Of a stretch of DNA of 64,000 nt, positions 37,940 through 62,209 are shown piece by piece. Each line of letters begins with the position of its first letter. The first letter of the stretch is position 1. A program made the translations under genes and the position numbers. Below the pieces are notes generated by a model. That model was not told where the DNA came from, ran no database searches, and worked only from the letters and a program-made list of their open reading frames with translations. This stretch comes from a virus: IMG/VR virus record IMGVR_UViG_3300035701_000008, positions 32,001 to 96,000 of that record, one strand, 5' to 3'.

Positions 37940-38197
37940 CTAAGATTTAATTCTTAAACCGAACTGTAAATCAAACCATCCAAATGTTTCTTCAGCTCTT
38001 GATTTGTTAAATTTAAATATTTTCTTTAATAGAGGCATAGCATATGCTTTAAATTCCTCATGTTGTTTTTGAGTCATGGTCCAATTGAAGTACCACATGT
38101 CATCATCTAGTGTGTCCACTAGTCTTTTACCTACCATATCAAGTTGATACTCGATGAGGTGTCTGGTAATGTTAGCTCTGTTCACTTTAGCTTTCAT
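37940..38197 (-). CDS. Hypothetical protein
   Basis: 85 aa ORF. Confidence 0.7.
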   Translation of the reverse strand: MKAKVNRANITRHLIEYQLDMVGKRLVDTLDDDMWYFNWTMTQKQHEEFKAYAMPLLKKIFKFNKSRAEETFGWFDLQFGLRIKS

Positions 38198-40164
38198 TAG
38201 AATAAATTTAATTGATTAGGTATAAACACTGTTTTAATTCTTTTTCCTTCAGTCTGAATCTTCAAGACTAATCTATTAGCTTTCTCAATGTAATAATCAT
38301 AATTTACATTATCAGTGCTACTGTTCTTAGGTAGAAAGTTACAAACTTTACACACCCATTCACCAGCTTCTATCTGACTGATTGCTGCAGCTCTGGTTTG
38401 ACATTCTGGATTTTTGATTTTGAATATCTTGTCTCCTTCATTAGATACATAATACCGTATGAGTTTATCATACACTGTTTTCTTACCAGTTGATCTATTA
38501 GTTCCTTCATAATGGAAACTTCTTGTAGCTTTTTGTCTTAAGCAAAAATCGTACAGATTAGTATGATTTCTGATAGTCTCATCAACAGGTACACCATCAA
38601 CAAAATAACGCTCAAGAGCAATAGGAACAATCCTCGCACTCTTGTTTTTATGTAACTCAAAATCTGTGAGGAAATCACCTTTCTTTTTAATTTCTCCATT
38701 GGTCATAATTGCTAAATAATCATTGACAGTACTAAATATAATCTTTGAGTAGTCTGTTCTCTCCAATTCATATTGTGTAATGTCACACCACCATGCATTG
38801 ATTTCATGCATCAAGGGAATCATGTCTTTTTTAATCCTGATAGTTACACCATCTGTATTTGCAGAGATCACATGTATGCCATTCAATTCATATCTTTCAA
38901 TAAGCATCATTAAGCTAAGTTCACCTGTAATTGTAGTGAACATAGTTAATTGCCTATCATATATCCATGATTGCATATCAGATGATTTACCATATACAGA
39001 GTTAACTGCAAGTTTAAGAGCACCAACAATTCCTTTAATCTTCTTATCTTTCTTTGCAAGAGGTTTAAGCTCCAATCTTTTCTCAAACATCTGTTTGTAT
39101 CCCCTAAGGAATTCTTTGCCTAAATGAGCAGGAAACTTACCATTATTGATGATGATGGCAGGATAGTAAGAACTGACATCCCAATCTATTATCTCGTACT
39201 CTTCATCAGCTTCAAACACCTTAGGTGTATTCTCTGTATGAAGACCACCTTTCATAAAAGAATACACATTTCCATAGAAATCTATATGCTCTTTGAAATC
39301 ATCTTGCAGACCAAGCTGCATTTTATTAATTTTCTTTAAGAACTCTTTAAGTTGAGGTGTTTGGAACATTACATATTTAGCAATGCAATTCTTTACATCA
39401 ATGCTTTTTCTGAAATATCCTTTCTTAGGAAGTTCTCTGTATGTAATTCCTTTCTCTGAACAATAATACTTCTTAATCATTTCATCCCCTATCTTAGAGT
39501 CTGAATAGTTCATACAAGGGATACCAAATTCAGCTTCAATATCTTGTCTCAGCTCTATTTGATTATTCCCTTTATACAGTGGATGATCTGTATCACCCAT
39601 AGTTATCTTGTAGAATTCATAAGTTGCATCTACATCATTATAACAATAGTCAATGGTCATTTCCACTTCTTCTTTTGTCATATTAGTTTTGGTATGATGT
39701 ATAGGCATTTCTTCTATATTCTCAAGATCCATTTCAAACTCTAGTCTCTTCAGACTCACCATTCGATTTTTATTGTTGTAATGATGAATAGTAAAAAGAT
39801 CTAATTGCTTAAGAGATAATTCATGCTCTCTGTATTCAGGAAATACATCATAGTTAGCATCATGAATAACATCTGCAGCTTTCTGTGCTATTTTTGCACA
39901 TATTTCTAAGTTAGTTAGTTCATGCCAATTGTCATGATTTCTAAAGATCCACTCAACAACTTGACTATCAAAGCGTAGATTATTATACCCCACCCAATAA
40001 GCATCAGAATTGTCTTCTGTATATCTAACAAAAGCATCAAGTTGATTCTTCCATTTAGACACTTGAAAGCTCTTACCAGCTTTACCAGGTACCATACATA
40101 CAACTAAGAATAGTTCTTGCATGGTTTCTATGTCGTAACATATAATAGGCTCACATGTTTTCAT
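38197..40164 (-). CDS. polB: Family B DNA polymerase
   Basis: Exonuclease YDIET, YNNLRFD, YCYND. Polymerase DVSSYYP, KLAVNSVYG, NTDG. Confidence 0.95.
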   Translation of the reverse strand: MKTCEPIICYDIETMQELFLVVCMVPGKAGKSFQVSKWKNQLDAFVRYTEDNSDAYWVGYNNLRFDSQVVEWIFRNHDNWHELTNLEICAKIAQKAADVIHDANYDVFPEYREHELSLKQLDLFTIHHYNNKNRMVSLKRLEFEMDLENIEEMPIHHTKTNMTKEEVEMTIDYCYNDVDATYEFYKITMGDTDHPLYKGNNQIELRQDIEAEFGIPCMNYSDSKIGDEMIKKYYCSEKGITYRELPKKGYFRKSIDVKNCIAKYVMFQTPQLKEFLKKINKMQLGLQDDFKEHIDFYGNVYSFMKGGLHTENTPKVFEADEEYEIIDWDVSSYYPAIIINNGKFPAHLGKEFLRGYKQMFEKRLELKPLAKKDKKIKGIVGALKLAVNSVYGKSSDMQSWIYDRQLTMFTTITGELSLMMLIERYELNGIHVISANTDGVTIRIKKDMIPLMHEINAWWCDITQYELERTDYSKIIFSTVNDYLAIMTNGEIKKKGDFLTDFELHKNKSARIVPIALERYFVDGVPVDETIRNHTNLYDFCLRQKATRSFHYEGTNRSTGKKTVYDKLIRYYVSNEGDKIFKIKNPECQTRAAAISQIEAGEWVCKVCNFLPKNSSTDNVNYDYYIEKANRLVLKIQTEGKRIKTVFIPNQLNLF

Positions 40165-44012: not shown

Positions 44013-44041
44013 AAAAAAGCCTCTAGGCAAGTAGAGGCTTT
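44013..44041 (-). terminator. Intrinsic terminator ending the ncRNA block
   Basis: AAAGCCTCTA..TAGAGGCTTT hairpin followed by U6. Confidence 0.85.
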
Positions 44042-44045
44042 AGTC

Positions 44046-44226
44046 GAGAGTTTATTCATTGCAACTCACAAGTGTTCCCTATCCACAGAGACCATAGATT
44101 ACAAGTTTAATGTGGATGTAATACCACGATTATTGAGATTGGCACTAGTAAAACCCAAACCATAAAGTACTCAACTCCTTCTCTGCGTGGAAAGGACTTA
44201 ACATTCATGAGAAGCCAAATTTCTCT
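44046..44226 (-). ncRNA. About 180-nt rod-shaped structured RNA, 6S-like candidate
   Basis: Nested long-range pairings with a central open region, no ORF, located between tmRNA and a terminator. Confidence 0.5.
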
Positions 44227-44267
44227 AATGTCTGTTGCTGTACATATTTGACATCAAGCAACTGCTG

Positions 44268-44589
44268 TGGAGGTGGGGAGAGTCGAACTCCCGTCCAAAC
44301 TACTTTCATTAATACAATTTATACAGCTTATGGGGTCAAGCTCAGCTCAACGATTCCACCACTCTGTTTAATCTTACTACAGAGAAGAATAATTAATTTA
44401 GGCTGCTACAGCAACTTCTTCTCTAATTAAAGAGAATACTCTGTTCATGTTAGCTACTACTTGTGCGTTATCTCCTAGAGACACTACACGACTTGTGTTT
44501 TTGCCATTTAATCTATTCACCTTAGTTTACAGTTATCTCTCTGGCTGATTGTACTAACTATTGGTAACCTGTCAAATCCAGTCACCCCC
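44268..44589 (-). ncRNA. ssrA: tmRNA
   Basis: 5' GGGGGUGACUGGAUUUGAC. Acceptor stem with G3-U wobble pairs to CACCUCC-A. T-arm GGGAG-UUCGACU-CUCCC. Tag frame 44505-44398 ends VAVAA*. Confidence 0.93.
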
Positions 44590-44815
44590 ATTATGTTTTG
44601 TATCACTCTAGTGAGTTTAAAACTGACTACACTGATATGAAACATAATATGCATAATATAGGTAAGTTCAATGATACGCAGCACATACATTGACTATTTA
44701 AACTGATGTGTGGCGCTTATAGTCCCCAGTGATTATACAAAATTATAACCAAGTCACTTACTGTCCTTCAAGAGAGTATCCTAATAATACTCCAAGTTAT
44801 AATTTAATATCTCTG

Positions 44816-44859: not shown

Positions 44860-46254
44860 TTATATTTTAATCTCTTGTTCACCTACACCTTCTGTATAGC
44901 TGTACACTCTGTCTTCACAAGTCACCTTAATCTGTTTACCACCTGTAGCAAGACATAAATCTCTCAATTCATCATTAAATTCTATCAATGATACAGCATT
45001 CACCTTATAAGGGAATTCATCTGTATTGATTCTATCTTGACCATCGTTCAAAATTAATATCTCTGGTTTCTCATGTGATAGGTCAATATCAAGATTACAT
45101 AATCTACCACTAGATATCTCATCAGAAATACGTTCAACCATAGCAGCAACAGCTGTTTCTCCACCATTAGGTTCATTAGAGAATGTTTGCCAAAATTTAA
45201 TTACATCCTCTTTGTTCTTAATGTGTTGAAATTCTAATTGGTCTGGATCATGAACAAAATAACTAAAGAACACCTCAGCTTCTCCCTTCATTACATACCT
45301 GAATCTGTCTATTAATATAGCATTCACCCAAGTTTGTTTACTATCCTCCCACATAGAACCAGAGAAATCTAGAATGATGATGATCTTTTGAATCTGTTCT
45401 TTTCTATCAACTGGTACATTAACTGTCAAATCTTTAGTTAAGAACTTAGTTCTGAAGTTAGGGAACATCTTTTGATAAAGATCCATCATATGCATTTGAG
45501 CATAGTCTCTCATAATCATCTTAGAATACTCATCAGAATTAGCCACTATCTTTTCAGATATTTCCTTTTCCACTTTGAACTCACTACCAAACTTACCAAC
45601 AAGAGACAAATGGTTCATAATCTCCATCTTTTTATCTCTACTTCTATCATTTAGTTCTAGTTGTTCATTGATGTCTGGATCAGCATATATTTTTCTGTCA
45701 AAATCTAATCCTTTCTTGAGATCTAGCTCATCATCTTCTTGTCTTTCACCATCTGAGTCTTCATTCTTACTTGCTAATTTCAAATAAATAGCAACAGCTT
45801 GTTCAAGAGGTGTAAATCCAGGAATGTATTGCCCATAGATAGAATCAATCAATGGTTTCTTTCTATCATATTGTGCTCTATCTTTATCAGTGAGTGAATC
45901 AACATCTAGATATTTATCATCCAGATAATTAGGTTCTTCGATCATCTTGAAATAACATGCACGTGCTAACTCTTTGATCATATCAATACTCTCTTGACTC
46001 TTGACATATCTAAGTTTCTTCTTTATCTCAGTGGATGTTGGTGTAATGTAATTAACTGGATCTTTAACAAATAAGTTGCTATCATCATCCTCATCAACCT
46101 CTTTAATAAATGAATATGTAGACCAGCTATTTTTAGACCAACTACCACCACCATACTTACTCTTCCAACTTCCTACACTCTTTTTGGGAGTGTAGGTTGG
46201 AGTATAATAATCACCATAGTAATCATCATCAATGTTATCAAATAATGTTCTCAT
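44860..46254 (-). CDS. VWA-domain protein (MoxR partner)
   Basis: MIDAS DFSGS, GGET, LNDG. Confidence 0.85.
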   Translation of the reverse strand: MRTLFDNIDDDYYGDYYTPTYTPKKSVGSWKSKYGGGSWSKNSWSTYSFIKEVDEDDDSNLFVKDPVNYITPTSTEIKKKLRYVKSQESIDMIKELARACYFKMIEEPNYLDDKYLDVDSLTDKDRAQYDRKKPLIDSIYGQYIPGFTPLEQAVAIYLKLASKNEDSDGERQEDDELDLKKGLDFDRKIYADPDINEQLELNDRSRDKKMEIMNHLSLVGKFGSEFKVEKEISEKIVANSDEYSKMIMRDYAQMHMMDLYQKMFPNFRTKFLTKDLTVNVPVDRKEQIQKIIIILDFSGSMWEDSKQTWVNAILIDRFRYVMKGEAEVFFSYFVHDPDQLEFQHIKNKEDVIKFWQTFSNEPNGGETAVAAMVERISDEISSGRLCNLDIDLSHEKPEILILNDGQDRINTDEFPYKVNAVSLIEFNDELRDLCLATGGKQIKVTCEDRVYSYTEGVGEQEIKI

Positions 46255-47564
46255 TAGATAAATGCATTTATGGTTAGATTTTTATCAAATTTGGTTTTAG
46301 CTTGTGTAGCACTCTTAACTAATTGTGAATGTATGTGTGCTATATCATCACCTACAGTGAGGCCTTTGATGTCTGTAAGTTGTTTGTTAAGATCACCAAT
46401 TGCATCTTTGTACATCTTCTCATCCTCTCTTGTTACCAATGGTAGGTGATTTAGTGTCTCAATACTATAAGTGATAGCTGCAGATAAGTCTCTAAACTTA
46501 ATTGTAGCTTCGAACTTCTTAATCACTTCAGCAATCAATGCTGGTTTCTTAGCAAACTCTGCAATGAAACCTAATGAATCTGGACCACATTGATCATACA
46601 CTGAATAAGCTGTTACAGCTACACGTGGACTAATTGTAATACCATTCTTAGCATACTCTTGTAACAAGTATGGAATCACTGGATCTACATTATCTACACC
46701 AAACTTACTTTCTAGTAATCTGTTATAGGATATTTCTGTGTAGTTATCCCATACAACATTCAATTCTAAAGGAAATCTCTCCATCAATGCTTTTAATGAC
46801 ATATTCTTAGAGAATTCATCACGAGTTCTATTTGTACAACAAATGATGAACTTAGTAGCAATAGGAAATATCTGTGTACCATTTCTGAATACACCTGATG
46901 ATAAAATATCCTTCAATTGCTCTAGAATAAAATCTGGTGCATCGAACAACTCTTCGAACACTACATATTCATGGTTCATGAAAGAATTCTCTACAAGATA
47001 TTCTATCTTACCTGTTTTCTCGAATGTTGGTATATCAAGACCACCAAACAATCTGTCTGTTGTCATACCTGTACCCATTGTAATAATGTAAGGAGTGATT
47101 CCTTTAGATTGAAGAAAATCAAGTGTTATTTCTGATTTTCCATGACCCCCTGCGCCATATAAAACTACATTCTTACCTGTTTGAAATCCTACATTAAGAA
47201 TGTTAACTGTTTTGTCCATAAATACGAACTTCTCTGATACTGGATTTGCTTTTGCTGATCTCTTTGCTGTTGTTTTCATTTTTCTTTCTGTTATTAGGTT
47301 GTTGTTTAATTTAATTTGTTCTAAAATTTCTTCGATTATTATTTCTTCTTCTTTGAGAATACATTGTGATGGTCTAAATGTCCAATCATTTATACGAAAT
47401 TGTTGGTTAGATTCAATACTACTATTACATCCATCAGGAACATCTTGTCCCATGAAACGATCCATTTTATTGTAACTATTCCAATGTTTTGGTACATGAG
47501 CAATAGTATCCCAAAGACCATCTCTTTTGAATTCTTCCTCTGTCTTAAATCTATATTTACTCAT
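46254..47564 (-). CDS. MoxR/RavA-like AAA+ ATPase
   Basis: GAGGHGKS, RLFGG, VVFEE, CTN, ALMERF. Confidence 0.85.
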   Translation of the reverse strand: MSKYRFKTEEEFKRDGLWDTIAHVPKHWNSYNKMDRFMGQDVPDGCNSSIESNQQFRINDWTFRPSQCILKEEEIIIEEILEQIKLNNNLITERKMKTTAKRSAKANPVSEKFVFMDKTVNILNVGFQTGKNVVLYGAGGHGKSEITLDFLQSKGITPYIITMGTGMTTDRLFGGLDIPTFEKTGKIEYLVENSFMNHEYVVFEELFDAPDFILEQLKDILSSGVFRNGTQIFPIATKFIICCTNRTRDEFSKNMSLKALMERFPLELNVVWDNYTEISYNRLLESKFGVDNVDPVIPYLLQEYAKNGITISPRVAVTAYSVYDQCGPDSLGFIAEFAKKPALIAEVIKKFEATIKFRDLSAAITYSIETLNHLPLVTREDEKMYKDAIGDLNKQLTDIKGLTVGDDIAHIHSQLVKSATQAKTKFDKNLTINAFI

Positions 47565-62101: not shown

Positions 62102-62175
62102 CGTGTGGTAGAGCAGTTGGTTAGCTTGCAAGACTCATAATCTTGAGGTCGTTGGTTCGAGTCCAACCCACGCAA
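62102..62175 (+). tRNA. tRNA-Met(CAT), initiator-like acceptor stem
   Basis: Cloverleaf with CAAGA-CTCATAA-TCTTG anticodon arm and GTTGG-TTCGAGT-CCAAC T-arm. C1:A72 mismatch, CCA not encoded. Confidence 0.92.
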
Positions 62176-62209
62176 CAAATTAAACCAAATTATTAAATTT
62201 AACTACATT

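Follow-up and report, generated by a model that had tools for sequence, protein, structure and literature searches.

The window analysed here is a 64,000-nucleotide stretch, bases 32001-96000 of a 113,586-bp IMG/VR virus record that has direct terminal repeats and is rated complete. Within it, ARAGORN called a single tmRNA (44267-44589, minus strand). Rfam matched RF00023 at 44265-44589 over the full model (positions 1-374), at 83.8 bits (gathering score 47; E-value 5e-31). The 322-nt tmRNA with a G3-U acceptor that was described in the initial annotation is therefore called by both programs. A search with Rfam at a permissive threshold between 43700 and 44900 returned the tmRNA as the one match and nothing else. 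The only tRNA gene in the window is a tRNA-Met (CAU) at 62102-62176 on the plus strand. The features of the locus are the following:

46254-47564, minus strand: gene of a MoxR-like AAA+ ATPase (PF20030, E 4e-13), upstream of the tmRNA unit
44860-46254, minus strand: gene of a 464-residue protein with no assigned family, after the MoxR-like ATPase gene and directly upstream of the tmRNA unit
44268-44589, minus strand: one-piece tmRNA gene of 322 nt, position 1 at 44589 (ARAGORN, Rfam, covariation)
44583-44589 with 44269-44275, minus strand: acceptor stem of 7 pairs, GGGGGUG with CACCUCC, 100% paired
44564-44571, 44548-44557 and 44544-44547, minus strand: 5' strands of helix H2, with partners at 44296-44303, 44309-44318 and 44324-44327
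44518-44543, minus strand: motif CAGAGAGAUAACUG-U-AAACUAAGGUG, at the position of PK1 in ordinary tmRNAs; phage-specific
44506-44510, minus strand: upstream pentamer UAAAU, with U at -5 and A at -4; frame-setting by context conservation
44503-44505, minus strand: resume codon GGC (Gly), assigned by comparison with hosts and relatives
44401-44505, minus strand: tag reading frame of 35 codons, then stop codon UAA at 44398-44400
44469-44483, minus strand: hairpin in the tag frame, codons 8-13, UGUCUC-UAG-GAGAUA (helix 6)
44425-44463, minus strand: conserved core QVVANMNRVFSLI, tag residues 15-27, defined by conservation; predicted helical
44452-44454, minus strand: GCU, the resume codon chosen by ARAGORN (rejected)
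44362-44384, minus strand: post-stop hairpin CUCUGU...ACAGAG (helix 7), 100% paired, 2 pairs changed on both sides
44336-44350, minus strand: second hairpin of the reduced 3' domain, UUGAGC-UGA-GCUUGA (helix 8), 85.9% paired
44276-44292, minus strand: T arm GGGAG / CUCCC with loop UUCGACU, 100% paired, 3 pairs changed on both sides
44016-44041, minus strand: terminator-like hairpin and T run, 226 nt past the tmRNA 3' end

The hairpin and T run probably end the transcription unit, and the tmRNA is probably cut from a longer transcript, which includes a conserved non-coding stretch (44042-44267, minus strand) between the tmRNA 3' end and the terminator. This stretch is free of ORFs and gave no match in Rfam. 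In 19 other tmRNA loci its first 100-140 nt recur with 79-99% identity, 0 to ~600 nt downstream of the tmRNA. Upstream of the tmRNA, 44590-44760 (minus strand) is 85-96% conserved in 18 other loci, at a varying distance from the tmRNA, and a promoter-like TTGAAG-18-TATAAT is present at 44771-44742 (minus strand) within the conserved upstream stretch. The small ORFs downstream of the window tmRNA matched no family. A partner gene was sought by clustering the 1,598 ORFs that lie up to 5 kb away from 111 tmRNA loci of the family described below. The commonest protein family was found at just 20 of the 111 loci, so no partner gene accompanies the tmRNA.

The phage DNA polymerase (38197-40164, minus strand) shares no more than 35% identity with its counterpart in any isolated phage, which makes this a phage without a cultured close relative. 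Its hosts are probably flavobacteria. It had been remarked earlier that no smpB is seen in the window; this holds for the complete 113,586-bp phage genome, which has no match to SmpB (PF01668) at E <= 1. The SmpB of the host would thus be required.

The expected tRNA-like features of the molecule are present. The G3-U pair, a mark of alanine acceptors, is formed by G 44587 and U 44271, and is G-U in 23 of 23 close relatives. The discriminator base is A at 44268. Only the first C of the CCA end is encoded by the gene, and in host genes, likewise, CCA is mostly unencoded. An anticodon arm is absent and the long helix H2 takes its place. A two-piece (permuted) tmRNA was considered and rejected, since the gene is colinear from 5' GGGG to 3' CUCCA and RF04321 gave only 16.8 bits.

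The secondary structure was drawn on 23 close relatives (alignment A3); L008, whose tmRNA gene is 332 nt by Rfam, and L013 were left out of the counts. It consists of the acceptor stem, three H2 segments, a hairpin at the PK1 position, the in-frame hairpin, two post-stop hairpins and the T arm. In these relatives 96.5% of the cells of the drawn structure are paired, against 38-47% when the partners are slid. There are 19 pairs with changes on both sides, a number matched by none of 500 shuffles. The tmRNA is under structural selection. Three of the both-sided changes are in the acceptor stem and 9 in H2 (helices 2-4), which is 98.7-100% paired. In the in-frame hairpin one pair is UA in 13 relatives and GC in 10, and another is CG in 22 and GC in 1. 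Helix 8 has one-sided G-U changes only.

At the PK1 position a CAG/CUG hairpin of 3-4 bp is all that can be drawn, and the invariance of this region makes covariation uninformative there. The fourth pair of this hairpin is A-U, G-C or C-G in FpV4, Calle and L096. A second PK1 stem and a pseudoknot in the 3' domain were sought by eye and with RNAalifold, and no consistent pairing was found. The invariant motif at the PK1 position (44518-44543) contains AGGUGA, which we take to be complementary to the conserved 3' end of 16S rRNA. PK2-PK4 are absent: between the stop codon and H2 there are ~70 nt, which form two hairpins (helices 7 and 8), and most of the PK2-PK4 region of the model is empty for the window in the Rfam alignment. 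Because the pseudoknots of E. coli tmRNA can be replaced without loss of activity (PMC2481249), their absence is no argument against function.

BLAST found relatives of the tmRNA in the FpV4 group (Flavobacterium phages), in the Cellulophaga phages Calle_1 and phi38:1 and in the crAss-like Cellulophaga phage phi14:2. In an alignment of the tmRNAs of isolated phages the mean identity is 61%, yet a block CAGC.CAGAGAGAUAACUG..AAACUAAGGUGAA, followed by UAAAY-GGM, is invariant. The PK1-region motif is thus unchanged in four otherwise diverged phage tmRNAs. A scan of IMG/VR showed the motif block in at least 119 viral contigs, versus 1 of 185,579 bacterial and archaeal species genomes (one genome per species). 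The sole match among the species genomes lies on a 4.9-kb contig of a Flavobacteriales MAG. No further tmRNA in this MAG passed the cut-off, so the contig is probably phage DNA that was binned with it. The motif is absent from the tmRNAs of Flavobacteriales hosts.

Two markers define the family, and the window carries both. These are CAGAGAGAUAACUG N1-6 AAACUAAGGUG, 12-14 nt before the resume codon, and a tag 24-49 residues long that contains the core Q-[IV]-x-A-N-M-x-x-V and ends in A-A. Against RF00023 the phage genes score ~58-87 bits (58.2 bits for the FpV4 gene; L001, KT876724, 3001-3415), whereas host genes score 110-181 bits. The family is common to unrelated lineages, namely Fipvunavirus, Callevirus, the crAss-like phage and the lineage of the window. 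Judged by its sequence, the tmRNA is a member of a phage-only family.

Several other viral tmRNA genes were encountered during the survey. In L011 (2766-2989) and L114 (1524-1739), group I introns (RF00028, 96.4 and 94.1 bits, respectively) interrupt tmRNA genes with tags of 35-37 residues; the break in L011 is in the T loop. Two-piece (permuted) tmRNAs in L006, L007, L009, L010, L014, L016, L020, L021, L012 and L018 begin with the 22-mer that forms the 5' end of the window tmRNA, and most of their tags are GEQVE[ML]AMAA. L012 and L018 have a GGC frame of ~37 residues (GTQIKSVKAG...YAMAA), for which ARAGORN reports unrelated tags; long tags occur, it follows, in permuted phage tmRNAs too. The 268-kb viral contig L017 contains a one-piece tmRNA (from 632, minus strand) whose PK1 region is different and whose 21-residue frame, GNVLNNMAACGLFREEASVVA, has NNM...F.EE...V.A features in common with the long-tag family.

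Following UUAAAU, the frame from GGC (44505-44503) reads GKNTSRVVSLGDNAQVVANMNRVFSLIREEVAVAA, up to the stop codon at 44400-44398. It is an internal frame without a start codon and ends in VAVAA, then UAA. It had been described as a third of the molecule, which is correct (108 of 322 nt). When the 105 nt were shuffled, 7% of the shuffles lacked an in-frame stop. As the frame is open in 79 of 79 relatives as well, its openness is not a matter of chance.

From among the matches listed in the IMG/VR motif scan, 112 full genes were taken, which gave 79 distinct tag frames. In these 79 relatives, all from among the matches listed, frame 0 is open for 24-49 codons from the resume codon (median 35), and the median run before a stop is 6 codons in frame 1 and 11 codons in frame 2. 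The same 79 of the matches listed have TAAAT (58), TAAAC (12) or TAATT (9) as the pentamer before the resume codon, which is itself GGC (42), GGA (23) or GAC (14). The resume codon is separated from an invariant Ala-Asn-Met by 15, 18, 24, 27, 30, 36, 39 or 51 nt, a multiple of 3 in 78 of 78 genes among the matches listed. Indels that keep to multiples of 3 are not expected of an untranslated stretch.

For comparison with hosts we went from the phage motif, by way of the one Flavobacteriales MAG contig, to 81 genomes of that order, 76 of which have a tmRNA above the cut-off. ARAGORN was run on 30 host loci and called 29 tmRNAs of 392-406 nt with tags of 9-10 aa (GENNYALAA, GNNDYAMAA, DNNNSYALAA and similar). 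In 28 of the 29 it placed the resume codon at GGN or GAC, and nearly all contexts are such as UUUAAAU-GGC, UAUAAAC-GGC, UUUAAUU-GGC and AAUAAUU-GAC. UUAAAU-GGC in the window matches these contexts and the later candidate sites do not, which favours GGC 44505. In E. coli the frame is set by the five nucleotides ahead of the resume codon, most of all by the A at -4, and U85/A86 have a role in this (PMC2481249). In the window, U at -5 and A at -4 likewise precede GGC. Both the hosts and the 79 relatives therefore support GGC 44505, put forward in the initial annotation as an inferred resume codon, and with it the length of 35 residues. That the tag is unusually long is true in relation to hosts (9-10 aa), but not within the phage family, where 35 residues is the median of a range of 24-49 aa among the matches listed; the unrelated mycobacteriophage Bxz1 has a tag of 25 aa, so that a long tag is not unique to this family.

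The tag peptide was compared in an alignment of 76 distinct tags (A2). The tags start as in hosts, with G or D and then K or N. Then comes the core Q-[IV]-x-A-N-M-x-x-V-[FHY]-[SN]-[LI]-[LI], in which Q and M never vary over the 76 tags and A, N and V reach a conservation of at least 90%. After a variable linker the tags end, again as in hosts, in E-[VL]-x-[VMLI]-A-A. Of 79 tags among the matches listed, 72 end in AA and 61 have E at -6. The window tag is built in this way, from a start of the G-K/N-N type, a conserved, predicted amphipathic helix and the hydrophobic end E-V-A-V-A-A; its core reads QVVANMNRV at residues 15-23 and its last four residues are AVAA.

The conserved residues are written in varying codons. 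Among the matches listed, the core Q is CAA in 73 and CAG in 5, the N is AAC in 50 and AAT in 28, the V is GTA in 42, GTT in 30 and GTG in 5, and four codons are used for A. One core L/I position has seven codons, including both leucine codon families. This variation in synonymous codons shows that selection acts on the peptide and not on the RNA sequence. Constraint differs along the tag, with a pN/pS of 0.68 in codons 1-17 vs 0.37 in codons 18-35 within the subfamily of the window; codons 1-17 are weakly constrained as protein and also hold the covarying hairpin. AlphaFold2, given the 76-tag alignment, predicted a helix over residues 10-34 (pLDDT ~90 for 11-30), which for a free peptide is a propensity only. 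The prediction agrees with the earlier suggestion that the extra segment is possibly helical. A look-up of the tag in the ESM Atlas gave no lead (best score 0.84, unnamed clusters).

Three other readings of the locus were weighed, all of which fit the conservation data poorly. Translation might resume at a later codon, GCU 44454 (18 residues) or GAU 44472 after UAGGA (24 residues), so that the tag would be of normal or intermediate length and the part upstream would be structured RNA only. ARAGORN does choose GCU 44454, in the window both sites are preceded by U at -5 and A at -4, and the covarying hairpin and the pN/pS of 0.68 in codons 1-17 also point in this direction. We rejected the 18-residue tag of ARAGORN, ANMNRVFSLIREEVAVAA, which is in the same frame, as a heuristic call. 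The called start shifts between relatives (ANM in the window, ANAQ in L005, AQIE in Calle and GSSV in phi14:2, with FpV4 missed), and each call follows a chance UAG-NN-GCN. The UAGUA context before GCU is lost in relatives (UUGAA in FpV4, UCGAA in L005), and the UAGGA site is itself part of the hairpin. The frame from the conserved GGN is retained in subfamilies that lack the hairpin insert. The eight length classes between GGN and ANM, all multiples of 3, and the host resume context, which aligns to UAAAU-GGC and to neither later site, make a later start improbable.

In another reading the tag is unimportant and the tmRNA blocks quality control, by soaking up host SmpB or displacing the host tmRNA. 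A phage without SmpB must use that of its host, and the tmRNA of phage DS6A, which is reduced to the tRNA-like domain, was proposed to titrate SmpB (PMC4131195). However, such an RNA would not keep a frame of 24-49 codons open in 79 distinct relatives among the matches listed, nor conserve amino acids through synonymous codon changes, and we consider this as improbable as a later start. Competition with the host tmRNA can nevertheless take place alongside tagging. Finally, tmRNA genes often serve as integration sites for phages, which then carry pieces of them (PMC9004378, PMC11590407), so that the gene might be a piece of host ssrA, either the remnant of an att site or a recent capture without a function of its own. 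This is very improbable, as the gene is of full length, scores 84 bits where host genes score 110-181, and has its motif in at least 119 viral contigs against a single species genome out of 185,579. Moreover, it is common to phages as unrelated as Fipvunavirus, Callevirus and the crAss-like phage.

The closest cellular counterpart is the chromosomal SsrA of Flavobacteriales (RF00023). The tRNA-like consensus is common to the two, with GGGG..GAC.UGG.UUUGAC at the 5' end and GGACG.GGGUUCGA.UCCC.CC..CUCCAC at the 3' end. They are also alike in the G3-U pair, the mostly unencoded CCA, the context UAAAU-GGC or UAAUU-GAC, the G or D at the start of the tag and its A-A end. Host SsrA is 392-406 nt long and has a tag of 9-10 residues, whereas the window tmRNA has 322 nt and 35 residues. 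The phage frame is ~26 codons (~78 nt) longer, the conserved core included, and the sequence at the PK1 position is different and invariant. From the stop codon to H2 the phage tmRNA has ~70 nt and the host ~200 nt, the latter a rough estimate from the host length and a median resume position of 98. The Rfam score of the window (84 bits) is below the host range of 110-181 bits.

The isolated flavobacterial phages of the FpV4 group (KT876724) and Calle_1, phi38:1 and phi14:2 belong to the same family as the window, with an identical PK1-region motif, resume context and core. Read from GGN, their tags have 35, 30 and 38 residues. Their tmRNAs show an overall identity of just ~61-78% and, at 359-469 nt, are less reduced. 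The tags that ARAGORN reports for them are too short (22 and 11 residues), and the FpV4 gene goes undetected. The records KT876724, KC821612, KC821614 and KC821624 either lack an annotation of the tmRNA gene or place small 'hypothetical protein' ORFs across it. The record of Calle_1 does annotate a tmRNA, and the Calle tmRNA has been counted, not analysed (PMC8776804).

Phage tmRNAs as such were found in 402 of 18,146 phage genomes (PMC9004378). Bxz1 is among the mycobacteriophage tmRNAs listed on the tmRNA Website, where Bacillus phage G is also found (PMC4131195). In our re-run the Bxz1 tmRNA was one-piece, with 73.9 bits and a 25-residue tag, ATDTDATVTDAEIEAFFAEEAAALV. This tag resembles that of the window in its acidic, amphipathic middle and hydrophobic end. 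It differs in being of unrelated sequence and from another host phylum; its first residue is Ala, it ends in ALV and the ANM core is absent. The Bxz1 tmRNA sits in a tRNA cluster, whereas the window tmRNA has no tRNA nearby. Mycoplasma tmRNA also has an unusually long tag, read mainly by Lon, a precedent for a lengthened tag that accompanies a change of reading protease (PMC8403727). It differs in being a cellular gene of a lineage without ClpXP, with no sequence likeness to the phage tmRNA. Among the papers searched, none described a long, conserved tag in flavobacterial phages.

We consider it likely, with a probability of about 0.7, that the locus encodes a working, phage-only, one-piece tmRNA that resumes at GGC 44505, with the A-A end as a degradation signal and the helix as a docking site. 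The sequence has every element that host AlaRS, SmpB and the ribosome would need to read it, together with a long frame under selection as protein. The tmRNA would be excised from the longer transcript, given its CCA end and charged with alanine by host enzymes, and would then enter stalled ribosomes with host SmpB and EF-Tu. Translation would resume at GGC 44505, and Ala plus 35 residues would be appended to the unfinished protein. The hydrophobic A-A end would stay the C-terminal degradation signal. The helical core may serve as a docking site through which an adaptor, protease or other partner, from host or phage, sets the fate of the rescued proteins, or its rate. Meanwhile the tmRNA would keep ribosomes free.

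If these predictions from sequence are right, the phage probably sets the fate of unfinished proteins through the tag. The tag might redirect proteins to another adaptor or protease, or the tmRNA might compete with host trans-translation. A bolder and more tentative version, possible but on balance doubtful, is that the core docking peptide hands all products of stalled ribosomes during infection to a partner of the phage's choosing, such as a different protease (Lon or FtsH, for example), a phage factor or a sequestration site. Were the docking reading true, one possible use would be the clearing or neutralising of products made by host defence nucleases that cut mRNA or tRNA, and the long tags of the Bxz1 type in mycobacteriophages would be a convergent solution.

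The tag of tmRNA is in textbooks a short, simple degradation signal, and phage tmRNAs have, to our knowledge, been treated so far as spare copies of the host gene. The family described here occupies at least 119 contigs and at least four unrelated phage lineages, with a tag that is three to five times as long as in hosts. A peptide motif that hardly varies across a phage-only family argues that the peptide itself is selected, and not the release of ribosomes alone. In practice, these tags are mis-called or missed by ARAGORN, and the gene is left without annotation in several GenBank records. Cultured models exist in FpV4 on Flavobacterium psychrophilum and in Calle or phi38:1 on Cellulophaga. 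The family therefore offers a testable handle on how phages use ribosome rescue, through the reader of the motif and the fate of the tagged proteins.
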